A stretch of 64,000 bases of DNA, taken from the NCBI GenBank assembly GCA_049517435.1, contig JBEKRZ010000003.1, positions 2,453 through 66,452 on the forward strand. The letters run 5' to 3'. Below are positions 2,011-62,375 of this stretch, piece by piece (the stretch's first letter is position 1; each line of letters opens with the position of its first letter). Under the pieces are notes generated by a model. The model was not told the origin of the DNA. It did no database searches and saw only the letters and a list, made by a program, of their open reading frames with translations. Source of the DNA: Smithella sp. Its GTDB lineage: Bacteria > Desulfobacterota > Syntrophia > Syntrophales > Smithellaceae. The translations under genes were made by a program, and so were the position numbers.

Positions 2011-2029
2011 TCTTCGCCTCCATTATTAT

Positions 2030-2187
2030 CTCTCGTCGCTTAGCTCCTTGGATAATTCCACTTACGCTTCGAATTTCATTTCATTCGTTTTACCACGGCG
2101 CTACGCGCCTGGTATAATTCGTCCAGCAAGCTTCAGCACACGCTGTTTCTGAAGTTTGGGTCTCATTATCAGCGAGTGTCATTATCA
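2030..2187 (-). repeat. H-family modular hairpin tract, copy R1 (inside the ATPase operon, between atpF and atpA)
   Basis: The minus strand reads AATGACACTCGCTGATAATGAGACCC...CGAAT-GAAATGAA-ATTCG-AAGCGTAAGTGGAATTATCC... It shares GGATAATTCCACTTRCGCTTCGA..TTCATTTCATT and AGCGAGTGTCATTA with R7. It lacks the CCCGTGATT terminus. Confidence 0.7.
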
Positions 2188-2958
2188 TCATGCCGCGTGC
2201 GCCTCTTTCTGGAGCGTTTCAGTCAGACTTTCCACCAGCGTCTCCAGATACTCATTGAGACTCCAGGCGATCTTATGCCCATTCACACGCAATTCAATGC
2301 CTGATACTATCTCCGGCTGCCTCATATACTGCAGAGTAAAACCGTTGGTTATCTGCTTCTTCAGAACTTCCTCGATTTGCGCCTGCCGGGACGCGGAAAT
2401 GCTAAAAGCGCTCTGGATAATCACCCGATTGCCGCCGCCCCTGATGGCATTGCGCATCTGAATGCTTTTTTCTTTATCGAGCGCTTTGATCCGGCGGATG
2501 AATTCATCCACAATCCGTTCCTCCAGATCGGCGTCCGCCAGATCGCGCAAGGCTTTACGCGCCGTGGCATATAATTGCTTGGCCACCCGCTGGCGCAAAT
2601 CGGAGAAAAAAGCGTCCTTTTCGCGAACCAGCATATCCTGCCAGCGCACCTTGACCTGATCAACTTCCTCGCGGACTTTTTCCATCAGTTCTTTACGCTT
2701 GGCATCAGCGGCCATTGTCGCCTCATTGAGCATCTGCTCTTTTGCTTCGTTGAGCAACTGGTTGCGCTTTTCATAAAGCCCGGCAGCCTCGGTTGCCTTG
2801 ACTTTCATATCTTCGGCGTCGGCAAACCGCGCGGTAATCTTCGCTTCTCTATCGTCCATCGCTTTAATGATTCGCCCATAAAGAAAGCGCTTCAGCAGAT
2901 AGACAAGCAAAAGAAAATTGAAGATCTGGCAAAACAAAACAAACCAGTCGATATGCAT
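2188..2958 (-). CDS. atpF: ATPase subunit b, long form with delta/OSCP-like C-terminal region
   Basis: 256 aa. N-terminal TM helix (WFVLFCQIFNFLLLVYLL) followed by a long charged helix. The C-terminal ~90 aa (RVIIQSAF...IELRVNGHKIAWSLNEYLETL) resembles the delta C-terminal domain. The operon has no separate delta gene. Confidence 0.8.
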   Translation of the reverse strand: MHIDWFVLFCQIFNFLLLVYLLKRFLYGRIIKAMDDREAKITARFADAEDMKVKATEAAGLYEKRNQLLNEAKEQMLNEATMAADAKRKELMEKVREEVDQVKVRWQDMLVREKDAFFSDLRQRVAKQLYATARKALRDLADADLEERIVDEFIRRIKALDKEKSIQMRNAIRGGGNRVIIQSAFSISASRQAQIEEVLKKQITNGFTLQYMRQPEIVSGIELRVNGHKIAWSLNEYLETLVESLTETLQKEAHAA

Positions 2959-2961
2959 GGA

Positions 2962-3237
2962 TCATCCCCCTGCCTTTACAAAGTAGCCCCAGAAAGGATT
3001 CGCAAAGATCACGATCATGGAAATAACAAAGCAGTAAATCGCGATAGATTCGATCATGGCGAGTCCCACAAATAGTGTTCTGGTCAAAGAATTTCGCTCA
3101 TCGGGTTGCTGGGCAATGGCGGCAAGAGCCTGCTGAATTGCCCGTCCTTGTCCCAGGGCCGGTCCGATTGAACCGATCGCCATCGTTAAACCCGCCGCAA
3201 TAATTGAAGCCACTGCAACTAAACTCAATTTATCCAT
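2962..3237 (-). CDS. atpE: ATPase c subunit (rotor ring), Na+-type ligand pattern
   Basis: 91 aa two-helix hairpin. Q in ALGQGR, and E-S...Y in MIESIAIY. This matches the Q32/E65/S66/Y70 Na+ ligand pattern of the Ilyobacter tartaricus c subunit, with I at the T67 position. Confidence 0.9.
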   Translation of the reverse strand: MDKLSLVAVASIIAAGLTMAIGSIGPALGQGRAIQQALAAIAQQPDERNSLTRTLFVGLAMIESIAIYCFVISMIVIFANPFWGYFVKAGG

Positions 3238-3272
3238 AAAAACTCCTCCTTATATAAATTTATTTATCAGGC

Positions 3273-3992
3273 TTATATGCCTTCGCTAACCTCTGTTTTA
3301 TGTGACTCCTCCTGGGCGCTCGCTGCCGAAGCGATATACACCATAGAAAGTATGGCAAAAATATATGCCTGGATCACCCCAATCAAAAGCCCCAGTGCCT
3401 GCATGATGACAGGGAATAACAGAGGCGTGACAGAAAGAAGAATTCCGATAACCTTCTCATGACTCATGATATTGCCAAAAAGCCGGACTGTCAGGGCGAG
3501 CGTTCTGGATATTTCCCCCATGACATGGAAAGGGAAGAAGATGAAATTGGGTTGAAAATACTCTTTCAAATAATGGAACACGCCGTTGCGCGAGATGCCG
3601 TAATAAGGAACTGCGACAAATACACACAAAGCAAGCGCCGCCGTTGTCATGAGCGATGCCGTGGGCGGAACATAACCGGGAATAATAGCCAGAACATTGG
3701 AGAGACAAATGAAAAGAAATAGAGTGCCGATCAAGGGAACATAGTCATCGACTCCCTTCTTGGTCATTTCCCTGATTTCTCCGCGGATAGTAGAAATAAC
3801 CACTTCGAGGAAATGCTGCCAACGGGAAACATTGATGCCGGTGGAAAGATTGCGCGTTATCAGCAAGGACCCGCTCACCAGAATTGCCATAACCAGCCAT
3901 GTATAGACAAGGGTTACATTTATAGTGATAAAACCCCATGTCCAGAGAATAACCTGATCTGGGCTGATTTGATTAATGGCTACTATTTCCAT
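3273..3992 (-). CDS. atpB: ATPase a subunit
   Basis: 239 aa polytopic membrane protein with the stator Arg motif LTVRLFGNIMSHE. Confidence 0.9.
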   Translation of the reverse strand: MEIVAINQISPDQVILWTWGFITINVTLVYTWLVMAILVSGSLLITRNLSTGINVSRWQHFLEVVISTIRGEIREMTKKGVDDYVPLIGTLFLFICLSNVLAIIPGYVPPTASLMTTAALALCVFVAVPYYGISRNGVFHYLKEYFQPNFIFFPFHVMGEISRTLALTVRLFGNIMSHEKVIGILLSVTPLLFPVIMQALGLLIGVIQAYIFAILSMVYIASAASAQEESHKTEVSEGI

Positions 3993-4032
3993 TTGAACTC
4001 CTAAGTTGGCTGTGGAAAAATTTTATAATATT

Positions 4033-4341
4033 CTAAATCGCTTTATCCATTCCCAGGCGTCGTGTGAGAATCATCCTCATTAAAATGAAACCGATAAGCG
4101 CCATGGCCAGACGCTCCCAATGCTCTCCGCCCATAACTAAATAAAATCCCGCCATCACCACCGCCATCCGTATAATAAAGCTTCCGAGCATCAGGCGCGC
4201 GGGACTATGAGCTTTCGGCAACTGACGCACTGTTCGCCACAGAGCGGTAAAATAAAACGCTCCAAGGGCTAGACCAGCGGCAAAAGCTACGATTGTCGGA
4301 AACAACATTGCCGGATTAAGTATGCTGTTCATCATCTTCAT
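4033..4341 (-). CDS. atpR: N-ATPase AtpR-like small membrane protein
   Basis: 102 aa with about 3 TM helices and an Arg within a helix (ALWRTVRQL). It sits between atpQ and atpB, as in N-ATPase operons, and overlaps atpQ by 26 nt. Confidence 0.7.
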   Translation of the reverse strand: MKMMNSILNPAMLFPTIVAFAAGLALGAFYFTALWRTVRQLPKAHSPARLMLGSFIIRMAVVMAGFYLVMGGEHWERLAMALIGFILMRMILTRRLGMDKAI

Positions 4342-4669
4342 CTTCCTCGATAATTTTGCTGCGAACTTTTTTTACCCAGTATGCCGCATTGATGCATCCC
4401 AACACCACACCGATAATCAGAAACATCAACGCCCAGGAATAACGGCTCGGCCAAGTACGGTCAATCCACAGACCCAGCGCAACCCCGATCAGTGTGGGGA
4501 TAGCTACAGACCAGCCGACAATGCCGAACATACCCAGACCGAACCAGACGGTCTCGTCTTTGTGCCGAAGTGCCTTCTGCCGCAGCGCCTCTTTTTTGGC
4601 CACCTGTTCGGTGAAATGATTTGCCATTTTTTGGCGTCGCGTGCTTGGTGTTCGTCTTATTTCAACCAT
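4316..4669 (-). CDS. atpQ: N-ATPase AtpQ (AtpI/AtpZ-like) membrane protein
   Basis: 117 aa ORF; the more likely start is MANHF at 4627. Two TM helices WFGLGMFGIVGWSVAIPTLIGVALGLWIDR typical of ATPase_gene1-type proteins. Position follows atpC. Confidence 0.7.
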   Translation of the reverse strand: MVEIRRTPSTRRQKMANHFTEQVAKKEALRQKALRHKDETVWFGLGMFGIVGWSVAIPTLIGVALGLWIDRTWPSRYSWALMFLIIGVVLGCINAAYWVKKVRSKIIEEDEDDEQHT

Positions 4670-4711
4670 GTTTCTTACTCCCCTGGAGATGTTCTACGTT
4701 CTAATGTCCTT

Positions 4712-4931
4712 TCACTATTCATCCCGCGTCGCTGCGCTCCTGGGATAATTTCCAATAGCCTTTGGCTATTGGATAATTCGTCTTGCAAATTTCACTACAC
4801 TTCGCTTGTGAAATTTGAGACTCATTACGACTTACACTTCAAACCTACAGTGACCTTTAGGTTATTCGCTATGCTCGTTTTCAGAGAGTCTCACTACGAC
4901 TTACTCTTCCTATAGTCAGTGAGTCTCATTA

Positions 4932-4946
<15 letters not shown>
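4712..4946 (-). repeat. H-family modular hairpin tract, copy R2 (inside the ATPase operon, between atpC and atpQ)
   Basis: The minus strand reads GTGGAACTAAAATAGTAATGAGACTCACTGACTATAGGAAG..., colinear with the start of R5. Shared modules are AACGAGCATAGCGAA, AAATTTCAC-N12-GTGAAATTT and CCAATAGCCAAAGGCTATTGGAAATTATCCC. Its first 15 nt encode the last 4 codons and the stop of atpC. Confidence 0.75.
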
Positions 4947-6705
<1,759 letters not shown>

Positions 6706-7558: not shown

Positions 7559-7672
7559 TCTTTCATCCCTCTTTCCATAGAGTTACTATGATAAAAAAAT
7601 CTCACTTAAGTGAATCCGTCCTGTCAATTCCGTTACTTGGAATCCCCCGGTTCCTGCTGGAGGGGGCTCCAC

Positions 7673-8143
7673 TTACTGTGTATTCTTTATCGCCAGCAAT
7701 TCCAGTTTCATTAATTTCCAGAATTGTCTGGCAATAACATACATAATGTAGTCGAACATGAGAATTGTCCGGCTAAGACTTCCCACCGCCTGTCTGTGCT
7801 CTACCTCTGCATTAAACATGGCTTGAAACTCCGCATATAACCACATATGCCTCCTCATCAGAATCAGAGCATACAACGCTTCGTGCAGAGGAATTCCCTC
7901 TCTATATCTTTCCTCCGCGTACTTTTCGAAAATTTCTTCCGCCTGTTCATACGGTGATTCATGAAAAAACATCATTTGAAAATTACTGTAAAAATCTTTG
8001 GCTTGAAGAATAATTTTATCCTCAGATGCCTCATGATAGGTATAAGTTTTCGCGTTAGTCTTCACATCCTTTGCCCATTGCTTGACGATTGTTTCAGCGT
8101 TTTTCTGAGTTAAATCTATGAGTTTTGTGGTAAAAGCTTTCAT
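7673..8143 (-). CDS. Soluble RsbRA-N/globin-fold-like sensor domain protein (paralog of 6731..7558)
   Basis: 156 aa, alignable end to end with the N-terminal half of the downstream gene. Preceded by a sigma54-type promoter and an AAGGG ribosome-binding site. Confidence 0.55.
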   Translation of the reverse strand: MKAFTTKLIDLTQKNAETIVKQWAKDVKTNAKTYTYHEASEDKIILQAKDFYSNFQMMFFHESPYEQAEEIFEKYAEERYREGIPLHEALYALILMRRHMWLYAEFQAMFNAEVEHRQAVGSLSRTILMFDYIMYVIARQFWKLMKLELLAIKNTQ

Positions 8144-12144: not shown

Positions 12145-12372
12145 ATACCATTTCGATTGGAAGTTGCCACCTGTTCGGCGTCACTTCCCGGTAGGGTAAA
12201 AAGTTATTATTGCGTGCCCCTTGGTTACGCACCCGGTCAAAGGATCAGCATCGGTAAGGAAAAGGCGATGAGGCGTATAACCTGAAGATCACGCTAGGTC
12301 ACGCGTTGCACATACGTTAAGGAAGCCGACAACGATGCCAACAAAAATAGTGCTTTGATTTAAAATTAGAAT
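12145..12372. mobile_element. M-family MITE-like element, long variant with degenerate termini
   Basis: Left end ATACCATTTCGATTGG; right end CTTTGATTTAAAATTAGAAT. The core GGCGATGAGGCGTAT...ATACGTTAAGGAAGCCGACAACGATGCCAACAAAAATAG is shared with 16086, 42094, 49433 and 63236. Confidence 0.6.
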
Positions 12373-12503
12373 AACATAAATTATTCTTATCTACAAATAA
12401 TAGTTATAACTTTTTTAAATTTTAAGAAAAGCCCCGGACTTTTTTGCATATATATAGGTTGAAACTACCGCAAAAGAGGAATATAAAACTTCTTTGAAAC
12501 CTT

Positions 12504-14057: not shown

Positions 14058-14195
14058 AAATTTATAATGAGACTTAATTTTTACAATCCCGCAGGATTGC
14101 GGGAGAAGTAAAAATTTTTAGTCGAATTATCCCGATACCAAAGCGTATCGGGATTAAATTCCAAATATGGTCTTAGGTTTTGCCCAAGAGTAATG
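14058..14195 (+). repeat. H-family modular hairpin element, copy R3 (degenerate termini)
   Basis: Starts AAATTTATAATGAGACTT. Contains hairpins TCCCGCA-GGAT-TGCGGGA and AATTATCCCGATAC-CAAAGC-GTATCGGGAT. Ends TTCCAAATATGGTCTTAGGTTTTGCCCAAGAG. Confidence 0.6.
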
Positions 14196-14942: not shown

Positions 14943-14956
14943 CCGATTAATTTATT

Positions 14957-15063
14957 GTTGAAACTCTAATTCTAATGAAACTCAGATATTACAAACGTAG
15001 TGCAGTAATATCTGCAAATTGAATTATCCCACGTGTGAAGCTAAGGGGGACTATACCTGTGAT
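14957..15063 (+). repeat. H-family modular hairpin element, copy R4 (shortest, both termini)
   Basis: GTTGAAACTCTAATTC ... hairpin CAGATATTAC-N13-GTAATATCTG ... AATTATCCC ... GGGGGACTATACCTGTGATT. The 3' end abuts the TPM gene stop codon. Confidence 0.7.
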
Positions 15064-15851
15064 TAAAAATCTCCCCCGGCGCCGCCGCCGCCGCTCATGC
15101 CGCCACCAAAACCACCAAATCCTCCGCCGAAACCGCCGCCATCACCTTTACCACCGCCACGGCCGCCGCTCAATAACAGAAGCAATATCCAAGGAAGCAT
15201 TGATCTGCCTGTTCTTGTGCCTAAAAGCAAAGCAGCCGCAATCAGAAAAAAAATGATTTGAAAAACGTTAATGCTTTTTTGCTTGACCCGGGCATTGGTC
15301 CGGTATGGCGCGGGCGAACCACTCAACTGAACACCGGCATCTTTGGCAATAATAGAGCTAAGAACATACACCGTATCATAAAAAGCCTGACCATAATTAC
15401 CTGCCTGGAGTTGCGGTTTTAGATATTTGTCTCTAATTTCGCCGACTAAACCATCCGGCAATATACCCTCTACGCCGTAACCGGTTTCAATCCTGATTTT
15501 GCGTTCCTTAAGCGTCAAAAATACTAAAACGCCCTTGTCTTCGCCTTTTTTGCTGATACCCCACGCCTTATAAAGGCCATTGACATAAAGACTGGTTTCT
15601 TCCCCTTCTCCGATAGTAGGGACCGTTACCACAACAACCGCCGTGCCTGTTTTTTCTAAGACTTCACGCGACAGGGCTTCAATTTTAGCGGCGTTATCCT
15701 GATCAATGATATTGGCAAAATCATTGACGGCGCCACGCGGCAAAGGGTACTTATCGGCTGCAAATATGGCATTGGTTATCAGCGCCATAAACAGCGCGAC
15801 GGCCAGAGCCAGTATTATTTTATATCTATTGCTTAAAGATTTATTTTTCAC
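15063..15851 (-). CDS. TPM-domain (YgcG-like) membrane protein with Gly-rich tail
   Basis: 262 aa. Signal/anchor, then a TPM-like region (VNDFANII...VVVVTVPTIG...GVLVFLTLKERKIRIETGYG), a TM helix, and a GGGFGGGFGGFGGG tail. Confidence 0.8.
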   Translation of the reverse strand: MKNKSLSNRYKIILALAVALFMALITNAIFAADKYPLPRGAVNDFANIIDQDNAAKIEALSREVLEKTGTAVVVVTVPTIGEGEETSLYVNGLYKAWGISKKGEDKGVLVFLTLKERKIRIETGYGVEGILPDGLVGEIRDKYLKPQLQAGNYGQAFYDTVYVLSSIIAKDAGVQLSGSPAPYRTNARVKQKSINVFQIIFFLIAAALLLGTRTGRSMLPWILLLLLSGGRGGGKGDGGGFGGGFGGFGGGMSGGGGAGGDF

Positions 15852-16085
15852 AAATTACCAGAAGACTTTATTAATTCTACATTAATCTTTTCAACTATGG
15901 TGCAAATATAACAATCTATTTAGAAAAAGCAAGACACTGACAAAAACATTACTCAATACTGATGACCTTGTTGGCTTTATGCATTATTTCAAATACTTCT
16001 GGCCGAAACATGATAATCTTAGCTATCATGCGAGGTGACTATTACGTAAAGAATGCCACCTGTCAAGCGGCAAATAAGAACTGTA

Positions 16086-16277
16086 ATACCAATTCGATTT
16101 CTTTGGCTAACTTTGTTGGCGTCGTTGTCGGCTTCCTCAACGTATTACCAATACGCCTCGTCGCCTCCGCCTAGCCCCACTCAAGAGGGACAGTTTAACT
16201 AACGAATTACAGATTACTGCGTAACTGTAATTCGAGTTTCACTGCCGCCTCGTTATCCTTTGAAATCGGAATGGTAT
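16086..16277. mobile_element. M-family MITE-like element, full copy
   Basis: The termini ATACCAATTCGATTTCTTTGG and CCTTTGAAATCGGAATGGTAT are inverted repeats. The core is GTTGGCGTCGTTGTCGGCTTCCTCAACGTATTACCAATACGCCTCGTCGCCTCCGCCTAGCC. Confidence 0.7.
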
Positions 16278-16331: not shown

Positions 16332-17873
16332 TTGTGCAGAAAACCTATGTCACTAAAAATAATTTTGATCCATCCGCCGATTGCCAAATGTTCTGAACCG
16401 CCAGCGGGCATCGCCAAATTATCCGCCTGTCTGAATGCGAATAAAATTTACCATAAAGTTATTGACGCCAATCTGGAAGGCATCCTCTACCTGCTTAAGC
16501 ATGTTTCCAATAACAATACAACCACCGATAGATGGACAACACGTGCCGTAAAAAATCTAGAACGCAATCTTGTTGCTCTGCAAGACATCGCCACCTACAA
16601 AAGTCCAAGCCGCTACCAACGGGCAGTTATGGATATTAATCATCTTTTAAAGGTGGCGGGTAAATCATTGGGAGTTGATCTATCGCTTGCCGATTATCAC
16701 GATCTATGTCTATCCCCGATAAAGAGTACCGACTTAATATCCGCGGCCGAAAAACCGCGGGCTAATCCTTTCTATCCTTACTTTCAACATCGCCTGATTA
16801 ATGCGCTGGAAGAAAATCCGGATTTTGTCGGTTTTTCTTTAAATTACCTCAGCCAGGCGCTTTGTACTTTTGCCATGATCGGTTTCGTCAAGCAACTTCA
16901 GCCGCGACAAAAAATTATATTAGGCGGATCGCTGGTTACTTCCTGGATTAGACTCGGCACAGATAGGAATATTTTTCATGGGCTTGTGGATGAAATGATT
17001 GCAGGTGCGGGAGAACAAAAATTATTGGAGCTTCTAGGCGTTGAAGACGACTCGACCACCCACCCACCTGATTACAATTGTTTTCCACTTGATCAATATT
17101 TATCGCCTGGTCTGATCCTTCCCTACAGCAGCGCGCGTGGCTGTTACTGGCACAAATGCGCTTTTTGCCCGGAAAAAGCGGAAGGCAATGCTTATTTGCC
17201 TCTTGAGATTTCTCAGGTCACACAAGATTTGCAAATCTTAACAAGGCAGATGAATCCCACACTGATTCATATTCTGGATAGCTCTATTTCTCCGTCACTG
17301 CTCAACGCTCTGGCGCAAACGCCACCAGGCGTTCCCTGGTATGGTTTTACCCGGATCACTCAACATTTAACTGATGAAGATTTTTGTTTTTCCTTAAAAC
17401 GTAGCGGCTGTGCCATGCTCAAACTGGGAATTGAATCCGGCGATCAAGAAGTGCTTGATCAACTGAACAAAGGAATAGATTTGCCGACAGCGTCAGCTGT
17501 TTTAAAAACGCTGAAAAAAGCAGGCATTGCCACTTATTGCTATTTTCTGTTCGGCACACCACCGGAAAATCAGGAAAGCGCAGCAAAGACGATGGATTTT
17601 GTTTGTCAGCATCATGATTGCATTGATTTTTTAAATCTGGCAATTTTTAATTTGCCGTCTCAGAGCGTTGAAGCGCAAAGCCTGGCGACGCATGATTTTT
17701 ATGAAGGCGATTTGTCTTTGTACAAAAACTTTCAGCACCCCTTTGGCTGGCAGAGACCTGCCGTGCGCAATTTTTTAGAGAAGACTTTTAAAAAGCATCC
17801 GGCAATAGCTCCAATACTCCGACGCACACCGGAATTTTTCACCTCCAACCACGCACCGTTTTTTTGTTCGTGA
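16332..17873 (+). CDS. B12-binding-domain radical SAM protein
   Basis: 513 aa; the likely true start is ATG at 16347 (MSLKIILIHPP). Radical SAM cluster motif CYWHKCAFC (CX3CX2C). Confidence 0.85.
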   Translation: MCRKPMSLKIILIHPPIAKCSEPPAGIAKLSACLNANKIYHKVIDANLEGILYLLKHVSNNNTTTDRWTTRAVKNLERNLVALQDIATYKSPSRYQRAVMDINHLLKVAGKSLGVDLSLADYHDLCLSPIKSTDLISAAEKPRANPFYPYFQHRLINALEENPDFVGFSLNYLSQALCTFAMIGFVKQLQPRQKIILGGSLVTSWIRLGTDRNIFHGLVDEMIAGAGEQKLLELLGVEDDSTTHPPDYNCFPLDQYLSPGLILPYSSARGCYWHKCAFCPEKAEGNAYLPLEISQVTQDLQILTRQMNPTLIHILDSSISPSLLNALAQTPPGVPWYGFTRITQHLTDEDFCFSLKRSGCAMLKLGIESGDQEVLDQLNKGIDLPTASAVLKTLKKAGIATYCYFLFGTPPENQESAAKTMDFVCQHHDCIDFLNLAIFNLPSQSVEAQSLATHDFYEGDLSLYKNFQHPFGWQRPAVRNFLEKTFKKHPAIAPILRRTPEFFTSNHAPFFCS

Positions 17874-18159
17874 AACTACAATTTAATGAGACTCGCTGAC
17901 TATAGGAAGCGTTAGTTGTAGTGAGACTCAAATTTCATAAGCGCAGCAGAATGAAATTTGTAAGTCGAACTAATGACACTTGCTAAGAACGAGCATAGCG
18001 AAGTTCGAAGCACAAGTGGAATTATCATGCATGCAAAGCATACAGTGGTATCCAATAGCCAAAGGCTATTGGAAATTATCCCGCATAAGCGGGGTATGAT
18101 ACCCAACAGCTTGCCGAGAAATGTTTCCAAAGTTTGCTTTTGGTTTCATACCCGTGATT
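17871..18159 (+). repeat. H-family modular hairpin element, copy R5 (longest, both termini)
   Basis: Begins at the rSAM stop codon (TGAAACTACAATTTAATGAGACTCGCTGACTATAGGAAG). Carries at least 5 hairpin modules. Ends TTTCCAAAGTTTGCTTTTGGTTTCATACCCGTGATT. Confidence 0.8.
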
Positions 18160-18349
18160 GATAATAAGCAATAATATTATGATTACAATATTTGTTACAC
18201 CTACAGAGTTTCGGGAGTAGGCAGTTATCCGAATTGAGGATTACCATTTTAATTGTGGTATCCGACATAATCTAATGAGACAAGTAAGGACTTGCCCTGC
18301 ATTTGTAATGGCAGTGCGATCTGGAAACGCTGGGGTGTCAAGCGGAACT

Positions 18350-19969: not shown

Positions 19970-20195
19970 TTTTTGCCTCGTAAACTTCCTTTTGCGGTTT
20001 CAATGAGTTTGCACCTGAGTGCTGGGTCCGGTTGACCCGCCTTGGATATTTGTACCACATGTTAAGTTAGAGTTCAGCAGTTTTTTGATTATTTCCAATT
20101 GAAATGTTGTATGAATTTGGAAAATAAGAAAAACAACCAGGAAGAAATGCTTGCTGAAAACAAATTATGAAAAACGAATGATACTTATTCTAATC

Positions 20196-20330
20196 TGGCA
20201 GAGACATGCCGTGCGCAATTTCCTGGAAAAGACTTTCAAAAAGCATCCGGCGGTAGCTCCGATAATCAGACGCGCACCGGAATTTTTCACCTCCAACCAC
20301 GTACCGTTTTTTATTGACAACAAGCAATAA
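20196..20330 (+). pseudogene. 5'-truncated remnant of a paralogous B12-radical SAM gene (last ~40 codons)
   Basis: In-frame match to codons WQRPAVRNFLEKTFKKHPAIAPILRRTPEFFTSNHAPFF of 16332..17873. Over 39 codons I counted 7 synonymous-only and 5 replacement differences. No homology upstream of 20196. Confidence 0.7.
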
Positions 20331-20342
20331 TATTATAATTAT
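20314..20342 (+). promoter_or_regulatory. Promoter-like box (TTGACA, AT-rich -10 region) conserved after three rSAM gene tails
   Basis: TTGACAACAAGCAATAATATTATAATTAT. Related boxes occur at 18158 (TTGATAATAAGCAATAATATTATGATTAC) and 28665 (TTGACAACAGATGGTTAATATTATAGATA). The -10 assignment is ambiguous: AATTAT at a 17-nt spacer, or TATAAT at 14 nt. Confidence 0.45.
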
Positions 20343-20416
20343 AAGACTTGTTACGCAGGTCCACACAGTCTAAATAAATTGCAATAAATAATTGATTATT
20401 AAAGTTTAGGAGGTTA

Positions 20417-20522
20417 ACATAGATAAAGGCAAACATGGGGTAATCCGGCAACGCAAAACCACGTGTCCGAAAGTATTCGTTAAGAGGATACACGGAAAGA
20501 CGGGTTACCGAAGTGCATATGG
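20417..20522 (+). promoter_or_regulatory. Candidate c-di-GMP-I (GEMM-I) riboswitch in the adhesin leader
   Basis: Ordered blocks: AAAGGCAAAC (20425-20434); a short hairpin UGGG-GUAA-UCCG with a GNRA loop (20436-20447); ACGCAAAAC (20451-20459); a hairpin CGUGUCC...GGAUACACG (20462-20494); and GGGUUACCGA (20502-20511). From memory, Vibrio cholerae Vc2 has GGGCAAACC / GAAA hairpin / GACGCAAAGCC / P3 hairpin / GGGGUUACCGA. Confidence 0.55.
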
Positions 20523-20557: not shown

Positions 20558-23500
20558 ATGGGAAATAAAAGCGTTTTTACCGGTGTTGTATTGATTATTT
20601 GTTATGGGAAAAAACTGGTTGACCAAGCGAGTTCAAGCCTGAACAATTGGCGTATCATGGCGACGCGCATTATGCTTTTGCTGATGGCTAGTGCCATTTG
20701 GCTGGTATGCGCCGGTGCGTCGTACGGAGCCATCATTATCAATGCTCCGATGACCGATACCAATAGCGCTGGCTGGGTATTGGGCGGCACACCCACTTCA
20801 TCCTTGCTGACAGGAAACGGTACAATCGATCCCGCTGGTTCGGGGTGGCTACGCCTGACCAACAATTCTGGTAACCAGACCGGTTTTGCCTATAATACAA
20901 CATCTTTCGATCTGAGCCAGGGAGTTCTCGTCCAGTTTGACTATGCCACATGGGGAGGAACCGGAGCAGACGGCTATAGTGTCTACCTGTTCGATGCAGG
21001 GGTAAGTACCTTCAACATAGGCGCCTTCGGAGGTTCTCTCGGCTACGCGCAAAAACTGCCACCAGCCGTTACCCCAGCCGTTCCGGGGATCAGCGGCGGT
21101 TATGTGGGGGTTGGCGTCGATGAGTACGGTAACTTTAGCAATCCCACTGAAGGGCGTTATCTAGGCCCCGGCGCTTATCCCAATACGGTAACAGTCCGTG
21201 GTCCTGTCGTCGGTTTCGGAGGGGGTGCAATCGGTGATACGATCAACGCCTCCTCCTATCCCTGGATAGCAACGTCCGCCAACAACGGCTCACTCTGGTA
21301 CAACGGCACAACCAGACCGGATCAGACCAGCACGAACTATCGGAAGGTGGTGATACTGGTCAGCCCTGCGCCGAATCCGGTCGTCAATGCCTGGATTCAA
21401 TTCGGTTACAACCAGCCGCTTACCCAGATGATTACCAATCAAGCGCTTCCCGCGATCTCGACGTCGCAACTATTGCATATCGGCTATGCCGCAAGTACCG
21501 GCGGTTCTACCAACTATCATGAAATCCGTAACCTGCTGGTAACCAGCCTAAACACGAGCACCGGAATCGACTTGGGCATCACCAAATCTGTTCTCGACAC
21601 GACGACAAGTTCGACAACTATCACAGCCGTAGGGGATGGCATCCGCTATACCGTTACCGCCCGTAACTACGGCCCCAACAACGTGACCGCTACCGGCGTG
21701 GGGATTGTCGACAACGTGCCGGCAACCATAACAGGGGTCACTTGGACCTGCGCCGTCGTTTCCGGCTCGCCGGCTGGGACAAGCTGCGGGGCGGCCTCCG
21801 GCTCAGGAAACAACCTGAACACCACTGCCAACCTTCCATATGGCGGAGCGGTTACTTATACCATCAATGGTACCGTGGGCGCGTCGGCACCAAGTACGCT
21901 CAGTAATACTGTAATCCTCGTCATCCCTGGATCGGTCGTAGATTACAATTCAGCCAACAACAGCGCCACAGCTAGCATTGCTGTTACATCCAACCTCTCG
22001 ACTTCGACCAAAACATGGCAGGATTTAAACGGAGGCGATCAGAATCCCAACGACGTGTTGCAGTTCACAATCAATCTGAAAGAGACCGCTGGCGCTGCCG
22101 CTTCAGGCGTTTCGGTAACGGACACACTACCGCTTACTCTGACTAATCTGACGGTCATAAGTTTCCCCGCCGGTGCGACCAACAACTCCACCAGTAGCGC
22201 TCTTAACATCACCGGCGTGTCGGTCCCGGCAAACGGCTCTGCTACGATCGTCTTCCAGGCAACCATCGCGAACGGGACGGCGGCAGGAACCCTGATCAAT
22301 AATACAGCGACCATCACCAACCCGAACGGCGCTATCGCGAGCCCTTCTTCGCCGACGATCACGGTCTCCGCGTCGCAGATTCCCGCCACTGGCAACAAGC
22401 CGCTCTATCTCTATGGAGGGGCTGCATCACCTTACAAGATGTCCCGTTACCCTACGCCGGGCACACCCACCACCGCTGCCATCGCTGCCAACGGAGGTTC
22501 GGCGGTCTGGAACGGGAATTGGAACGGGCTTGCCAGCAGCACGTTGCCCCTGCAGCTCAACGACACGATAACATCGGCCACCGCCACGCTCTACATCAAC
22601 GGTAGCTCCAATAACACTCGTAATGTCGAAGTACGCTTATACTGCTCCTCGAACGCTGCGGCCTACGCCTCCTGGCCATCAGCGGCCCTTGCCACGAACC
22701 CGCCCGTACCACCGGCGACGCCGACGGCGTATATCTTCAATCTGACGACTCTCAACGGTGGATTTACCTTCCCCGCCACCTGTGCCACGCCTAACTACTG
22801 GGTGCTGCAGGTGTTCAACAGAACCACAACTGCCGGACGGACGATTACCGTTGTTCCGGTGAGTGGCACGAACATTTCACAAGTCCTATTGGCCTCTAAC
22901 AACGTTATCAACGTGAACAGCGTCAACAACTACAGCGCGCCCTATCCCAGCGTTTCAACTCCCGCTGCGGGATATTATGTGGGAAGCCAGTGGGTCTATG
23001 TGCGGGCTTTGGTGAGCGACCCCTTTGGCAGCTACGATATCACTTCGGCATCAGTCACGATCAAGGATCCCAATAACAATGTCGTTGTAACCGCCGCCCC
23101 AATGTCTGTGCCCACCGGCGGCGACTCGGGCGCTGCGACCAAGTACTACGAGTACGCCTACCAAATCCCTTCCGCCGGCCCGGCGGGATACTGGACCGCC
23201 AGCGTGACGGTAAAAGAAGGGACTGAGAACACGGTCTCACATACCGCCGCGGGCGCATTCCAGGTGGTTCTGCCGCCGCTCCTGACTGTCGTTAAGTCAT
23301 CGAGTCCCAGTCCCAGCGTAAGCCCCGGAGGGGTTGTCATCTACACGGTACTTGTTACCAACACCGGCGCCGGAACAGCTACCAGCGTAGTTATAAATGA
23401 TATCTTAAGTCCCTACGTCCAGTGGGGGCTTAATTCCTATGGTACAGGAATCGCATTCCAGTTTACGGACGGTACGCCCGCTTCGGGGCTAACCCTCGGC

Positions 23501-23656
23501 ACGCCTGTCTATTCCAATAACCACGGAGCCACGTGGACCTATGTGCCCTCTGGCACGTACGACGGCAATGTTACTAACTGGCAGATTCCCATGAGCGGTA
23601 CGATGAACGCTAACGGGGCTAATTTTACTATCAAATATAAGGTGCGCGTCAATTAG
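20558..23656 (+). CDS. Large secreted surface protein: N-terminal lectin/ConA-like domain plus DUF11-type repeat domains
   Basis: 1032-aa ORF. The probable start is ATG at 20657 (MATRIMLLLMASAIWLVCAGASYGA, a signal peptide). GWLRLTNNSGNQTGFAYN is lectin-like. DUF11-like units are present (DLGITKSV...GDGIRYTVTARNYGPNNVTATGVGIVDNVPATITG; LTVVKSSSPS...VIYTVLVTNTGAGTATSVVINDIL). GC is about 55% against 30-38% in the flanks (hand-counted 60-nt samples). Confidence 0.75.
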   Translation: MGNKSVFTGVVLIICYGKKLVDQASSSLNNWRIMATRIMLLLMASAIWLVCAGASYGAIIINAPMTDTNSAGWVLGGTPTSSLLTGNGTIDPAGSGWLRLTNNSGNQTGFAYNTTSFDLSQGVLVQFDYATWGGTGADGYSVYLFDAGVSTFNIGAFGGSLGYAQKLPPAVTPAVPGISGGYVGVGVDEYGNFSNPTEGRYLGPGAYPNTVTVRGPVVGFGGGAIGDTINASSYPWIATSANNGSLWYNGTTRPDQTSTNYRKVVILVSPAPNPVVNAWIQFGYNQPLTQMITNQALPAISTSQLLHIGYAASTGGSTNYHEIRNLLVTSLNTSTGIDLGITKSVLDTTTSSTTITAVGDGIRYTVTARNYGPNNVTATGVGIVDNVPATITGVTWTCAVVSGSPAGTSCGAASGSGNNLNTTANLPYGGAVTYTINGTVGASAPSTLSNTVILVIPGSVVDYNSANNSATASIAVTSNLSTSTKTWQDLNGGDQNPNDVLQFTINLKETAGAAASGVSVTDTLPLTLTNLTVISFPAGATNNSTSSALNITGVSVPANGSATIVFQATIANGTAAGTLINNTATITNPNGAIASPSSPTITVSASQIPATGNKPLYLYGGAASPYKMSRYPTPGTPTTAAIAANGGSAVWNGNWNGLASSTLPLQLNDTITSATATLYINGSSNNTRNVEVRLYCSSNAAAYASWPSAALATNPPVPPATPTAYIFNLTTLNGGFTFPATCATPNYWVLQVFNRTTTAGRTITVVPVSGTNISQVLLASNNVINVNSVNNYSAPYPSVSTPAAGYYVGSQWVYVRALVSDPFGSYDITSASVTIKDPNNNVVVTAAPMSVPTGGDSGAATKYYEYAYQIPSAGPAGYWTASVTVKEGTENTVSHTAAGAFQVVLPPLLTVVKSSSPSPSVSPGGVVIYTVLVTNTGAGTATSVVINDILSPYVQWGLNSYGTGIAFQFTDGTPASGLTLGTPVYSNNHGATWTYVPSGTYDGNVTNWQIPMSGTMNANGANFTIKYKVRVN

Positions 23657-23810
23657 GCTATTGCCGCTGCATAAGCAAACTGTTTACAGAAAAAAATGTG
23701 ATGTTATTTTAATAGCTCATTGGGGAGTAATGACAACGATCCCGCTTTTATTCCATGCGGGCCGGAATTGGAGAGAACTACTGCGAAATCGGGTTACAAA
23801 GCCTACTTGT

Positions 23811-24305
23811 TCATAACTGCGATTGATCGGTCACTTCTAAAATGGCATCTACAGCCGGTTGCACAAGCGCCTGCACCTTGGGCGAAAGGGTTCGTTTAAA
23901 ATCAAAATCGTAACCGCGTATGGATACCAGATGCGCCTTGGGTTCACTCTGATGCATAGTTTTGAGAAATGCCAAAAGTGTCGCAGGCGTCATGTGATGG
24001 GTAAATGAAGAAGAAACATATTGTGCTTCAACCGGCGAGCAGTTGAGATCTTCCAGATCGGAACCGACATGGGCATCAACAAAAATTATTTTATCATAGC
24101 CCGTGAGCAGTTCCATTATTTCCGGCACAAGCTGGAGTAGGAAGATTGAATCATTGTCGCCACTCAGTTCATCCAGACCGGTATCACCTTCTTCCAGCAG
24201 TTTCTGCCCCAGTTGCCGGCGCAATTCGTTTATGACAGCAAAAGCAACGCCATCGTCCGCGCAGTATATATTGCCATAACCAATAATAATTGTTTTGGAA
24301 TTCAT
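23811..24305 (-). CDS. [NiFe]-hydrogenase maturation endopeptidase
   Basis: Start reassigned to ATG at 24305 (MNSKTIIIGYGNIYCADDGVAFAV), a HycI/HoxW-type motif. The 58-codon N-terminal extension in the ORF track runs through repeat R6. Confidence 0.8.
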   Translation of the reverse strand: MNSKTIIIGYGNIYCADDGVAFAVINELRRQLGQKLLEEGDTGLDELSGDNDSIFLLQLVPEIMELLTGYDKIIFVDAHVGSDLEDLNCSPVEAQYVSSSFTHHMTPATLLAFLKTMHQSEPKAHLVSIRGYDFDFKRTLSPKVQALVQPAVDAILEVTDQSQL

Positions 24306-24311
24306 TTTATT

Positions 24312-24448
24312 GTTGAAACTCCAATTTCGAAAGCGAAGCGCAGCGGAATTGGTAAGTTGAACAATCCCGCGAAGCGGAGGGTTTAATACCCCGCAGCTTG
24401 CTGCGGAATCTGTTTCCAAAGCTTGCTTTAGGGTTCGTTCCCGTGATT
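24312..24448 (+). repeat. H-family modular hairpin element, copy R6 (both termini)
   Basis: Starts GTTGAAACTCCAATTTCG-AAAGCGAAGCGCAG-CGGAATTGG. Contains CCGC-GAA-GCGG and CCGCAG-CTTG-CTGCGG. Ends TTTCCAAAGCTTGCTTTAGGGTTCGTTCCCGTGATT. It is antisense to the hydrogenase operon. Confidence 0.8.
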
Positions 24449-24512: not shown

Positions 24513-25940
24513 TTAGCGGCTGATGCGGTCAAGAACGGTGCCATCAGCAGCGATCAATGTAACTTCCAGCGGCATTTTGCCGATGGCATGTGTGGAACAT
24601 GACAAACAGGGATCATAGCAGCGAATAGCCGCCTCCACTCTATTTAACATTCCTTCAGTCAGCTTTGTACCGTCAACATATGCCTTAGCCACAGCTCCGG
24701 CCGCTGTGTGCATGGCCCAGTTGTTATTGCCTGTAGCCACAATGAGATTAACTCTGGTCAACACACCGTTTTCATCTGTGCCATAGTCATGGAAAAGCGT
24801 TCCGCGAGGCGCCTCAATTACGCCCACACCCTGACCGGGAACATTCGAAAGCGGCGGATAGTTGCGAACATTAGTAGACATAATATCCGGATCATCCAGC
24901 AACTGGCCGATGCGTTCCAGACCATAAAGAACTTCAATCATCCGCGCGTAGTGATAATACAGAGAACCCTCTACAGGTTTACCGCCATTTATTTGCCGGA
25001 ACAGTTTGAATTCTTCCTGAGCCAGCGGTGTGCCGATTTTATCGATGACATTCAGTCTGCCTAAAGGTCCGACGCGATAGAAACCCTGAGGGAAGCCCAT
25101 CTTACGCAGGTAAGGATGCTTCAAGAATGACCACGGCTCGACATGCTCGGCAATGAAAGACAGATAGTGCTCCGGTTTAAACTGAGCCAGAAAATTGCCC
25201 TGCGCGCCTTTCACGCGAATTTCACCATCATATAGTTGAAGTCCTCCTTCCGCATCCACCAGCCCCATATAGCTGGAGGGAAAAGAGGCAAAAGATGAGG
25301 CGGTCTCCTTATTAGCTTCAAGCCAGCCTTTAGCAATGCTGATCGCCTCCTGAGCTATTGCGGTCATTGCTTTTAGCTCTGACGCTATGGTTTTACGATC
25401 TTCCTTGGTCAACGGAGCATTAACTCCGCCCGCAACAGCAAAATTAGCATGAACGCGTTTTCCGCCCAGCTTCTCGATTATCTGCTGACCATAGCGGCGC
25501 AGGTTAACCGCTTTCAGCGCCAGTTTCGGATTTTCTTTTATTATTCTGAAAACATTGCGCGTTGCGGGATCAGAATCAAAGCCAAAGAGAAGATCAGGTG
25601 CCGCCAGATGGAAAAAATGCATGCCATGTGACTGAACTGTCTGTCCCATGTGCATCAATTCGCGCAGTAGCTTGGCGGTACGCGTAGGCTGCACACGAGA
25701 AATCGCATCGCATGCCTTGGAAGCCGCCAGGTGATGGCTGATCGGGCAAATTCCGCATATGCGCTGTGTAATTTGCGGCATTTCATAATACGGACGGCCT
25801 TCGCAAAATTTTTCCAAACCACGGAATTCATCAACGTGGAAAAAAGTTTTTTCCACCACGCCTTGATCATCCAGATGTATTGTTACACGTCCATGACCTT
25901 CGATACGTGTTACAGGCTCAATAGTTATCTTCCGACCCAT
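24513..25940 (-). CDS. [NiFe]-hydrogenase large subunit (group 3-like, cytosolic)
   Basis: 475 aa. N-terminal RIEGH and RICGICPISH; C-terminal DPCLSCSTHA metal-site motifs. Confidence 0.92.
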   Translation of the reverse strand: MGRKITIEPVTRIEGHGRVTIHLDDQGVVEKTFFHVDEFRGLEKFCEGRPYYEMPQITQRICGICPISHHLAASKACDAISRVQPTRTAKLLRELMHMGQTVQSHGMHFFHLAAPDLLFGFDSDPATRNVFRIIKENPKLALKAVNLRRYGQQIIEKLGGKRVHANFAVAGGVNAPLTKEDRKTIASELKAMTAIAQEAISIAKGWLEANKETASSFASFPSSYMGLVDAEGGLQLYDGEIRVKGAQGNFLAQFKPEHYLSFIAEHVEPWSFLKHPYLRKMGFPQGFYRVGPLGRLNVIDKIGTPLAQEEFKLFRQINGGKPVEGSLYYHYARMIEVLYGLERIGQLLDDPDIMSTNVRNYPPLSNVPGQGVGVIEAPRGTLFHDYGTDENGVLTRVNLIVATGNNNWAMHTAAGAVAKAYVDGTKLTEGMLNRVEAAIRCYDPCLSCSTHAIGKMPLEVTLIAADGTVLDRISR

Positions 25941-28326: not shown

Positions 28327-28490
28327 TTTATGCTTTTACGTAATAATGACTGATCCTGTTGATGTTAATCAGGTACTTTTACTTAAATATTATCTAGTGG
28401 TATGCCTTTCTTGTCAATAAAAAAATGTCATAAGGCTAAAAAACTGCAAGTTATGAAAAATAAATATTCGTAATCTTGTAGGAGGCTGAT

Positions 28491-28601
28491 GTACATAATT
28501 TCTCGGAGAAAAGTTTCAAGAAACATCCGGCAACAGCTCTAATACTCAGGCGCAAAACAGGATTTCTTTCCTTCCAACTACACACCATTTTTCATTTTTA
28601 A
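28491..28601 (+). pseudogene. Second, more diverged 5'-truncated rSAM gene-tail remnant
   Basis: The in-frame translation VHNFSEKSFKKHPATALILRRKTGFLSFQLHTIFHF* aligns with VRNFLEKTFKKHPAIAPILRRTPEFFTSNHAPFF. A TTGACA box follows at 28665. Confidence 0.5.
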
Positions 28602-33259: not shown

Positions 33260-33375
33260 GTGGAGCCCCCTTTGGCATGAGCCGGAGGCTCCCCAAAATA
33301 ACGCGACCTCCCGCGGATTACACCGCATTCCTCCCCCGGCTGAAGCCGGGGGATTCTAAACCGCGGGATTGAAGG
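33260..33375 (+). repeat. L-family ~115-nt structured repeat, copy A
   Basis: GTGGAGCCCCC...GGAGGCTCC..AATAACGCGACCTCCCGCGGATTAC.CCGCATTCCTC...CCGCGGGATTGAAGG. Aligns with 52825..52940. Sits between the convergent lon and hrpA genes. Confidence 0.65.
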
Positions 33376-42068: not shown

Positions 42069-42093
42069 AGTCTGATCTCCATTTTTTTATTTT

Positions 42094-60461: not shown

Positions 60462-60467
60462 ATGAAA

Positions 60468-62204: not shown

Positions 62205-62375
62205 AATCACGGGTATGACCCCCAAAGCAAGCTTTGGGAAATTGTACCCCACAAAGCGGAGGAGAATTCGCTAACTGTAAAGTCCCACATGGCTTCGCAT
62301 GTGGGATAATTCCACTTGCGCTTCGATCTTCATTTCATTTGATCTTAGCGAGTGTCATTAAATTGGAGTTTCAAC
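62205..62375 (-). repeat. H-family modular hairpin element, copy R7 (both termini, inverted orientation)
   Basis: The minus strand reads GTTGAAACTCCAATTTAATGACACTCGCTAAGATC...GGAATTATCCCACATG-CGAAGC-CATGTGGG...TTCCCAAAGCTTGCTTTGGGGGTCATACCCGTGATT. Confidence 0.8.

Follow-up and report, generated by a model that had tools for sequence, protein, structure and literature searches.

What are the chains of short hairpins that recur between the genes of a Smithella sp., and how did they come to lie there? The question is raised by a stretch of 64,000 nt of its DNA, the window of this analysis, in which one such chain, at 17869-18159, has replaced the end of a radical-SAM gene. An initial annotation of the window had grouped this chain with other intergenic tracts as a directional family of modular hairpin elements, here called the H family, with conserved ends and interiors that vary through gain and loss of hairpin modules; this description is borne out. 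H elements are mobile now or were so recently, and insert precisely 3′ of TTATT or TTGTT. Their anatomy combines this one-sided target motif with a similar motif encoded at the element's far end. The chances are about even that the tracts are non-autonomous miniature single-strand transposons moved in trans by an HUH nuclease of an IS200/IS605-, RAYT- or IS91-like kind.

Insertion sites and distribution of the H family

Further copies were collected with either terminus. One genome per species was searched with the right-end pattern CCAAAGYTTGCTTTN{8,12}CCCGTGATT, which recovered at least 112 stretches; an independent search of metagenome contigs with the left-end pattern TGAAACTCCAATTCCGAAAGCG recovered at least 120. 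Together they give more than 230 further copies beyond the window. The retrieved H-bearing loci are designated by L-numbers (L019, L028, L072 and so on) and comprise about 1.5 Mb of element-rich DNA in all. Among the matches listed, 96 of 113 right ends have the left-end core no more than 600 nt upstream, and 90 of 127 left ends have a right end within 900 nt. The two termini therefore co-occur far beyond chance, a check proposed by the initial annotation.

The flanks of 211 listed copies define the target. The five nucleotides on the 5′ side read TTATT in 152 copies (72%), TTGTT in 12 and TCATT in 9, with T at position -1 in 98%, T at -2 in 94% and A at -3 in 84%. The element then opens with one or two variable bases (G, GT, CG, AG or TG) followed by TGAAACTC, and it terminates with GTGATT, beyond which the 3′ flank carries at most 0.2 bit at every position. 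The terminal TGATT resembles the flank TT[A/G]TT. Read from window and family copies alike, the two ends give no alignment as inverted repeats of each other. Thirteen of the 15 copies with a GTT flank triplet still end in ATT, and 8 of the 13 copies ending in GTT have an ATT flank; flank and terminal triplets thus vary independently, so that no target is duplicated. A classical MITE (a miniature transposable element with inverted repeats) is rejected on both grounds, since terminal inverted repeats are lacking (GTTGAAACTCC does not match AATCACGGGTA) and no site-dependent duplication accompanies insertion. The same conclusion had been drawn earlier from the conserved, mutually non-inverted termini.

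Mobility is demonstrated by five pairs of empty and filled sites, in which the boundaries of presence and absence coincide exactly with the element ends. Syntenic loci of related genomes provide L044 versus L107, L054 versus L109, L066 versus L092, and L088 together with L020 versus L019. In an example pair, read in element orientation, the empty site is ...AATTATT|GATTAAT... and the filled site is ...ATATTATT(CGTGAAAC...CCCGTGATT)GAGTATC..., with the element in parentheses. Empty sites have a single ATT at the junction; filled sites have one ATT in the flank and another as the element's last three bases. The fifth pair is paralogous and involves the element at 17869:

20195..20354, plus strand: paralogous empty site, duplicating 17747-17864 and 18157-18198 with no element between them

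Here the insertion point falls between 20315 and 20316, the empty site reading CCGTTTTTTATT|GACAAC and the filled site CCGTTTTTTTGTT(CGTGAAAC...GTGATT)GATAAT. The duplicate at 20195 keeps the pre-insertion state of the H site.

A gene fragment at 20195-20312 repeats the 3′-terminal part (17747-17864) of the radical-SAM gene 16332-17873 at 89% identity and is followed by a repeat of 42 nt from downstream of the gene; a more distant repeat of 65% identity lies at 28475-28592. The duplicate at 20195 is located upstream of a c-di-GMP-I riboswitch at 20418-20512 (+) that scores 48 bits (gathering score 35) and lies 45 nt upstream of a gene for a 1032-aa DUF11/lectin-like surface protein (20558-23656).

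The right-end matches listed come from at least 25 species-level genomes of Smithella, Smithellaceae, Syntrophaceae and 'Deltaproteobacteria' metagenome-assembled genomes (MAGs), including Smithella sp. D17, with at least 15 in the single richest MAG. Six MAGs of Bacteroidales and Rikenellaceae are also among them. Complete copies measure about 75-391 nt (211 listed copies), with the sharpest mode at 137 nt, which is the length of the window copy 24312-24448, and a second at about 110 nt. The consensus of the canonical form is GTTGAAACTCCAATTCCGAAAGCGAAGCGCAGCGGAATTGGTAAGTTGAACAATCCCGCGAAGCGGAGGGTTTAATACCCCGCAGCTTGCTGCGGAATCTGTTTCCAAAGCTTGCTTTGGGGTTCATACCCGTGATT, and identity between copies at unrelated loci exceeds 95% in many cases. 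The Bacteroidales and Rikenellaceae copies share the TTATT target and, over about 140 nt, match Smithella copies at 85-93% identity. Proteins of the Bacteroidales loci reach at most 54% identity to anything encoded in the Smithella loci and include Bacteroidota-type functions (GalA/GalB beta-galactosidases and a weak SusC/RagA match); these contigs are therefore not mis-binned Smithella DNA. The family has crossed between phyla and has multiplied in each of them.

Within the window, the 5′ and 3′ words occur on the same strand, in the correct order and at a spacing of 108-291 nt at four sites:

14957..15064, plus strand: H element of 108 nt; left end, one B-type unit, small hairpin and the minimal right end ACTATACCTGTGATT; target TTATT at 14952-14956
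17869..18159, plus strand: H element of 291 nt with four extra hairpin units between its left and right ends; target TTGTT at 17864-17868
24312..24448, plus strand: canonical H element of 137 nt; nhmmer E = 1.5e-46, 97% identical to the copy in L028; target TTATT at 24307-24311
62205..62375, minus strand: H element of 171 nt with both termini, recovered as repeat pairs, by blastn and by nhmmer; 5′ flank on the minus strand TTGTT at 62376-62380

These are the four copies to which both termini had been ascribed, with two corrected boundaries. The 17869 copy had been started at 17871, two bases too late with respect to TTGTT, and its end at 18159 stands. The 14957 copy is real and extends to 15064 instead of 15063; its 3′ terminus is reduced to the last 15 nt, without the CCAAAGC hairpin. 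When judged against dinucleotide-preserving shuffles, the 5′ word TGAAACTCCAATT (up to 2 mismatches) is found 9 times in the window for 3.4 expected, the 3′ word CATACCCGTGATT (up to 2 mismatches) 6 times for 1.35 expected (0 of 100 shuffles reach 6), and AATGAGACTC (up to 1 mismatch) 14 times for 3.3 expected.

The window is ordinary chromosomal DNA; among its genes are the N-type ATP synthase operon and those for a NiFe hydrogenase, Lon, helicases of the HrpA-like and DEAD types, RF3 and BipA. A metagenome assembly in ENA holds an identical contig of 7.7 kb, which marks the source as an uncultured organism. The H copies of the window abut or overlap start and stop codons, as had been noted. 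The 17869 copy is inserted within the final codons of the radical-SAM gene, where it replaces the last five; the TGA stop (17871-17873) is part of the element's own TGAAAC. The last two bases of the 14957 copy overlap the TAA stop of a TPM-domain gene (15063-15851, -). The 24312 copy is placed between the gene of the NiFe hydrogenase large subunit (24513-25940, -) and a downstream open reading frame (ORF) at 23811-24305, whose ATG at 24305-24303 is 6 nt from the element's 5′ end. We read this ORF, by position alone, as a hydrogenase maturation protease; Pfam matched no family to it. The 62205 copy sits in the divergent region between a DEAD-box helicase gene (60468-61778, -) and a TetR gene (62553-63200, +).

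The initial annotation had counted seven tracts and a possible degenerate eighth, near 23725-23790. Linkage between tracts was assessed by blastn of the listed tracts, by repeat finding and by an nhmmer profile built from the canonical element. All three methods interlink six of the seven, 2030-2187(-), 4712-4946(-), 14957-15064(+), 17869-18159(+), 24312-24448(+) and 62205-62375(-), with E values from 1e-46 to 0.04. The tract at 14058-14195 and the supposed eighth are weakly related and have only module words in common with the others. In all, the 64-kb window contains 7-8 H-family tracts. Those without a full set of ends are as follows:

4712..4946, minus strand: degenerate H element of 235 nt; diverged left end GTGGAACTAAAAT, decayed right end GGGATGAATAGTGA
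2030..2187, minus strand: B-type units only, 158 nt, without canonical ends; nhmmer E = 0.04
14058..14195, plus strand: single B-type unit TAATGAGACTT ... GTCGAATTATCC with a small hairpin and an unrelated 3′ part; weak member, nhmmer E = 0.5
23725..23824, plus strand: possible decayed remnant; small CCCGC...GCGGG hairpin and a weak right-end-domain match at 23779-23824, nhmmer E = 0.014
16164..16242, minus strand: H-type left unit formed by TGAAACTCGAATT, a hairpin, GTTAGTTAAACTGTCCC and a small hairpin; nhmmer E = 6.8e-06

The interior of 4712-4946 holds three B-type units, a CCAATAGCC hairpin and the mini-hairpin AACCTAAAGGTCAC at 4850-4863. This element lies within the N-type ATP synthase operon (442-6696, -; beta, epsilon, gene-1/AtpQ-like, AtpR, A, B, alpha), where its 5′ end provides the stop codon of the epsilon-subunit gene (4932-5312). 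The tract at 2030-2187 lies in the same operon, between the genes of subunits B (2188-2958) and alpha (442-2010). Both stand between operon genes in sense orientation and are presumably transcribed as part of the operon mRNA.

In the listed loci at large, copies are intergenic: only 3 of 93 fall inside a called ORF, and those three ORFs are probably spurious. The complement of the target, AATAA, fits the A-rich stretches that follow stops or precede starts, which probably explains why copies abut codons. A role as intrinsic terminators or promoters is rejected, as promoter-like and terminator-like matches stay at chance level. Placed in either orientation in operons and sometimes supplying a new stop codon, the copies look largely neutral for the host.

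Hairpin structure, interiors and neighbouring repeats

The canonical 137-nt form follows a fixed order: after the target [TTATT] come GTTGAAACTCC, the hairpin H1, GTAAGTTGAACAATCC, a mini-hairpin CCGC-GAA-GCGG, a single A, the right-end hairpin GGGT...ACCC and GTGATT. RNAalifold, applied to 35 canonical copies, predicts an extended left hairpin H1, the 4-bp mini-hairpin CCGC-GAA-GCGG with its three-base loop, and a right-end stem GGGT/ACCC that encloses two small hairpins, CGCAG-CTTG-CTGCG and CCAAAGC-TT-GCTTTGG. About 5 nt separate H1 from the 5′ end, and 6 nt separate the right hairpin from the 3′ end. Folding z-scores range from -3.9 to -4.9 against shuffles, for either strand and as DNA or RNA. 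Many loops are of the GCGAAGC type, a sequence that forms an unusually stable DNA mini-hairpin.

Both end hairpins are upheld by compensatory substitution. H1 exists in two versions, CCAATTCCG/CGGAATTGG and CAAATTTCA/TGAAATTTG, with compensatory changes at five pairs; replacement of its outer pair A6:T47 by G6:C47 accounts for the difference between TGAAACTC...AGTTG and TGAGACTC...AGTCG. The right-end hairpin occurs in three grades: 13 nt (GGGTATAATACCC), 38 nt (GGGTATGAACCCCAAAGCTTGCTTTGGGGTTCATACCC) and the three-way junction of the 137-nt form. Across 18 diverse 38-nt versions its stem is 93% paired, and in 7 of 19 pairs both partners have changed. Its covariation score is reached by none of 500 shuffles, and slid controls pair only 27-50% of cells.

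Longer copies grow by extra units composed of TAATGAGACYC, a hairpin, GTTAGTCGAATTATCC and a small hairpin, which are homologous to the left-end unit. Within an element all hairpin units point in the same direction, and each is preceded by the conserved word TGA[A/G]ACTC. Interiors also gain TGAGACTC-hairpin units. The 110-nt form equals the 137-nt form minus the 27 nt between its two AGCTTGCT hairpins; duplication or deletion between these hairpins separates the two forms. The left end can be paired with a different right end, and different left parts can stand before the H right end. At an orthologous site, L049 and L067 have the same flanks and a common derived CTTACTG 3′ variant together with different 5′ interiors, a contrast which indicates that elements are remodelled in place as well.

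A further layer of nesting is formed by the mini-hairpin (A)TAACCTRAAGGTCAC plus 3-5 nt, 18-20 nt in all, found at 53 sites in 863 kb. Larger hairpins nearly always carry it in their loops, and in places one mini-hairpin is lodged within the loop of another; its hosts comprise several repeat families and unrelated hairpins. Its window sites are:

4850-4863, minus strand: TAACCTRAAGGTCAC-type mini-hairpin
62468-62481, minus strand: TAACCTRAAGGTCAC-type mini-hairpin
about 12275-12300: TAACCTRAAGGTCAC-type mini-hairpin

Other repeats share the neighbourhood. A second family has inverted-repeat ends ATACCAATTCTAAATCAAAG ... CTTTGATTTAGAATTGGTAT around a core GGCGGAGGCGACGAGGCGTAT..ACGTTGAGGAAGCCGACAACGAYGCCAACAAA and is polymorphic among related genomes (L054:4067-4300 versus L109). 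It occurs in the window at:

12262-12380: second repeat family
16050-16275, minus strand: second repeat family, with an H-type unit in its interior
42084-42228: second repeat family, compact copy without the unit
49435-49484: second repeat family
60417-60472: second repeat family
63309-63363: second repeat family

The H-type left unit at 16164-16242 is thus nested in a member (about 16050-16275) of a different family with inverted-repeat ends. A third family is rich in GGAGCCCCC/GGGGGCTCC-type hairpins, has the terminus ...CGCGGGATTGAAG and usually lies just past gene ends; it is present in L019, L044, L104 and L211 as well as at three window sites:

7620-7680, minus strand: third repeat family
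33255-33375, plus strand: third repeat family
52824-52934, plus strand: third repeat family

Its copy in L044 is at exactly the TTTATT site where L032, 92% identical, has an H element, and by this placement the third family and H may use the same target. A related element at L032:5868-6005 starts with ATGAGACTCCAATT, ends differently (...CCAGTGCAC) and lies directly after a terminator-like GGGGCTTTTTA; it is absent at L044:989.

Mode of movement and competing explanations

A one-sided 5-nt target, a similar terminal motif, the lack of inverted repeats and of target duplication, subterminal hairpins and scarless empty sites together make up the signature of single-strand transposition by HUH nucleases as known from IS200/IS605. 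From this insertion anatomy we infer the mobilising step. Since no copy encloses a gene and no transposase recurs, the mobiliser would act in trans. In the proposed mechanism, a trans-acting HUH-type single-stranded DNA nuclease would cut the top strand at two places, 3′ of TTATT in the flank and 3′ of the similar TGATT in the element, and the element would move as single-stranded DNA. The route may be peel-and-paste, as in IS200/IS605 and the gene-less palindrome-associated transposable elements (PATEs) derived from them, or the related chemistry of RAYT or IS91. The recognition structures would be the hairpins, and a flexible spacing between hairpin and cut site would allow extra hairpin units to be carried along. 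A precedent is ISGst2 of the IS200/IS605 family, with flank motif TTTAT and terminal motif TTCAC, different at two positions; it has gene-less PATE-like relatives, trans mobilisation and a flexible spacing that allows sequence capture (PMC10055086). The same study describes the relation between transposon-encoded and transposon-adjacent motifs (TEM/TAM), in which the right-end motif resembles the target motif (PMC10055086). H elements would work like IS200/IS605-type elements; membership of that class is withheld on account of their dissimilar hairpins and the lack of a cognate tnpA element. RAYT-type or IS91-like rolling-circle chemistry fits nearly as well, and all three employ HUH nucleases.

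The direction of insertion relative to replication offers a modest clue. With local GC skew as a proxy, the skew is positive on the element strand in 50 of 81 loci (50:31, p about 0.04); this bias towards the G-rich strand is in the direction expected for insertion into the lagging-strand template and is suggestive only.

A RAYT- or IS200-like mobiliser was sought in the 1.5 Mb of loci, and none linked to the copies was found: one unrelated IS200-like gene and one edge fragment were recovered. The absence of a transposase from the window, noted at the outset, is confirmed by Pfam on 50 window ORFs and by tblastn with Y1 transposases, neither of which gave anything there. Clustering of all ORFs in the first 112 loci revealed no recurrent transposase or recombinase near copies, and regular expressions for HUH/Y1 motifs, run over the loci, found nothing. 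The recovered gene belongs to a complete IS200-like element in L072 (60-640, -) that encodes a 149-aa Y1 transposase, has identical CTGCGGTCTCTGCCGCAG hairpins on both sides, unrelated to H ends, and appears to interrupt a membrane-protein gene taken by eye as ACR3-like. HUH transposons are therefore present in this clade. Several candidates were discarded. A weak TnpA match in L016 is an acetyl-CoA transferase-like gene, and the sole apparent 3.5-kb pairing of a left with a right end (L105) is a chance match. Judged by eye, the translation of a 1.75-kb segment beside the L082 copy resembles an AMP-ligase-type enzyme, a gene between two inverted copies in L153 is methyltransferase-like, and ORFs ending upstream of left-less right ends resemble ordinary host proteins in their C-terminal sequences.

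A number of observations weigh against single-strand transposition by an HUH enzyme. None of about 240 listed copies encloses a gene or ORF, and no autonomous tnpA element with H ends occurs among these copies or in the 1.5 Mb of loci. Over the same 1.5 Mb, tblastn with IS200 and IS608 TnpA sequences, queries that RAYTs may escape, detected one complete Y1 gene (L072:91-540), a gene fragment at the edge of L189 and nothing more. The left and right H hairpins are dissimilar (H1 versus GGGTAT...ATACCC / CCAAAGC..GCTTTGG); IS608-type elements, like the L072 element, have nearly identical hairpins at both ends. No internal guide tetranucleotides that would pair with TTATT and TGATT could be identified. 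Relative to co-directional flanking genes, 24 copies are sense and 30 antisense, which, in answer to the count of orientations proposed by the initial annotation, amounts to no bias, and the 50:31 strand bias is itself weak. G:T mismatches in stems are about as common as A:C mismatches, a balance that points to neither strand as the folded one and to neither DNA nor RNA as the level at which the fold matters; a strand-specific fold is rejected. Finally, unit junctions inside elements are of the GGGT|TAATGAGAC type and not TTATT, which means that internal growth needs a second process.

Four other explanations have to be weighed against an HUH-moved transposon. The most serious, a doubtful but substantial one, is a host-associated system like the repetitive extragenic palindromes (REPs) and bacterial interspersed mosaic elements (BIMEs). 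Its hairpin units would be maintained and dispersed by a domesticated Y1 nuclease of RAYT type, present as a single copy and not bounded by any element, with arrays that serve the host, for instance in mRNA stability or as nucleoid-protein sites. It overlaps with the transposon reading, RAYTs being HUH enzymes, and departs from it in positing a domesticated enzyme and a function for the host. The very high copy number (7-8 tracts per 64 kb), the strictly extragenic placement, operons included, and the hairpin-linker mosaic all speak for it, and the word TGA[A/G]ACTC before each unit recalls the conserved 5′ tail of REPs. That none of the roughly 240 listed copies is autonomous is the pattern expected for REP/RAYT (PMC3116915). 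Against these stand units that all run one way, without the inverted doublets of REPINs, and the sharp asymmetric ends of the whole multi-hairpin element with its one-sided target, unlike REP clusters. Near-identity in two phyla argues for recent horizontal spread and not for long co-evolution with a host gene, and random orientation relative to transcription argues against a host role at the RNA level. No RAYT-like gene was seen in the 1.5 Mb, a weak test. The REP/BIME comparison made by the initial annotation is a fair analogy, then, and the insertion anatomy is nearer to IS200/IS605-type ends.

Unlikely, by comparison, is a non-HUH enzyme that needs no inverted repeats, such as an IS110/IS1111-type DEDD enzyme with ATT as shared core or a serine or tyrosine recombinase. 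An ATT present once in empty and twice in filled sites is the formal pattern of a recombination core, and structured ends without inverted repeats would suit it. IS110-type targets, in the bridge-RNA systems, are read on both sides of the core, though, and in H sites the left flank alone is conserved and the right side carries no information; flank and terminal triplets are independent, and no recombinase gene recurs near listed copies. It is very unlikely that H is primarily an RNA gene, be it an omega RNA scaffold in gene-less IS200/IS605 derivatives or another structured noncoding RNA. Linkers and loops strongly conserved across two phyla, and a predicted three-way junction at the right end beside variable flanking DNA, are what such a gene might display, and PATEs are reported often to encode omega RNAs (PMC10055086). 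Yet no Rfam family matches even at E = 10, minimal functional copies of about 75-85 nt make much of the 'scaffold' dispensable, and orientation is random with respect to neighbouring transcription. No TnpB/IscB-like ORF was noticed in the ORF clustering or among ORFs upstream of right ends, although no TnpB/IscB homology search was made. Least likely of all is that the tracts are not currently mobile and represent old structured intergenic sequence spread by segmental duplication or gene conversion, its polymorphism due to deletions. In-place remodelling and recombination are clear from the differing interiors at the orthologous L049/L067 site, and many copies are decayed (2030-2187 and 4712-4946 in the window); presence/absence boundaries nevertheless equal the element ends in five independent pairs, insertion sites have TTATT in common and are otherwise unrelated, and copies are more than 95% identical at unrelated loci and 85-93% identical in a second phylum. 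The tracts are accordingly not divergent duplicates of one locus, a possibility considered at the start: they lie at unrelated loci and are polymorphic among related genomes.

The H family could also be one part of something larger, although this wider proposal is doubtful. H and its relatives, including the TAATGAGACTC-starting elements and the H unit in the inverted-repeat family, might form a so far unrecognised superfamily of hairpin-modular mobile DNA without inverted-repeat ends that has crossed between Desulfobacterota (Smithella) and Bacteroidota, is spread by an enzyme that no element encodes and grows by 18-20-nt palindromic modules inserted into hairpin loops. If true, very small DNA would have a mode of mobility that is itself new, beyond a new PATE or REP family.

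The family itself adds an abundant, well-defined group of miniature mobile elements to syntrophic Smithella/Syntrophaceae and anaerobic Bacteroidales, groups known almost only from metagenomes. It reshapes intergenic regions, with copies in conserved operons and gene 3′ ends rewritten by new stops, and short-read assemblies will break at H sites. Its sharp ends and target make it usable in the search for a trans-acting single-strand nuclease, its near-identity across two phyla marks a recent route of horizontal transfer between partners in methanogenic communities, and it offers many natural examples of hairpin-module accretion.

Relation to known repeats and mobile elements

The H family is apparently undescribed so far. 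The 137-nt consensus had no blastn match among plasmid and phage records, the right-end pattern had none in viral contigs, and neither the literature on Smithella or Syntrophus repeats nor a full-text search for the element's words yielded anything relevant. These searches and Rfam agree with the expectation that no described family would match. Rfam families are rejected, as the only window match at gathering score is the c-di-GMP-I riboswitch elsewhere; in a permissive search of two copies (to E = 10) the matches stayed at chance level, to CRISPR-DR50 (E = 0.76) and a plant-virus element (18 bits against a 100-bit threshold), and none was better than E = 0.03. A CRISPR-repeat remnant is rejected too: GTTGAAAC resembles a repeat end, yet arrays are lacking. 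Integron attC sites bound gene cassettes and have the inverse core RYYYAAC at one end and the core GTTRRRY at the other; the 3′ end CCCGTGATT has no inverse-core partner, and copies lie inside ATP synthase and hydrogenase operons and not in cassette arrays, so this identity is rejected as well. The kind of element, a small gene-less mobile hairpin repeat, is already known, the family itself apparently not. It is unusual for ends that are asymmetric and dissimilar, for its growth by hairpin units, for the nesting of mini-hairpins, for the lack of an autonomous copy and for near-identity across two phyla.

Among repeats, BOX of Streptococcus pneumoniae is directional, modular, intergenic and strongly folding, and consists of boxA, a variable number of boxB and boxC. 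Compared by description, and with no sequence similarity expected, BOX and H both have two different conserved end modules and a variable count of internal modules; BOX differs in its hosts and in repeating one internal unit, in contrast to the several hairpin types and nested insertions of H. Small dispersed repeats (SDRs) have reportedly been described in Nostoc by Elhai et al. in 2008. The TAACCTRAAGGTCAC mini-hairpin, a passenger or sub-module of the H family, is like them very small, dispersed and nested in repeats, including itself, and differs from them in sequence and host phylum. REP, BIME and REPIN sequences share with H abundant extragenic hairpins, a hairpin-linker mosaic, tolerance in operons, the lack of an autonomous copy and a link, established or presumed, to HUH Y1 chemistry. 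H differs from them in that all its units are direct, in contrast to the inverted doublets of REPINs, and in its unique asymmetric ends and one-sided target; a RAYT gene flanked by H repeats was not seen in 1.5 Mb, in a tblastn search with IS200/IS608 TnpA that may miss RAYTs.

Among transposons, IS91 and ISCR elements are about 1.5-2 kb long, carry a Y2 transposase gene and use the target GTTC/CTTG. Like H, they have asymmetric ends, cause no duplication, insert with a short target motif by one end and terminate at a target-like motif; such termination could explain why one left end occurs with several right ends. H differs from them in its TTATT target and in having no transposase gene in or beside listed copies. 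The closest likeness is to PATEs, for instance the ISGst PATE-like elements of Geobacillus stearothermophilus. These are also small and gene-less, presumably moved in trans, and free of inverted repeats and target duplication; they insert one-sidedly 3′ of a 5-nt motif (TTTAT in ISGst2, TTATT in H) and carry a similar end motif (TTCAC and TGATT, respectively), subterminal hairpins and scarless empty sites. H is set apart from PATEs by its unlike end hairpins, the lack of a cognate tnpA element among the loci searched, an interior built as a variable chain of hairpins and its presence in two phyla.

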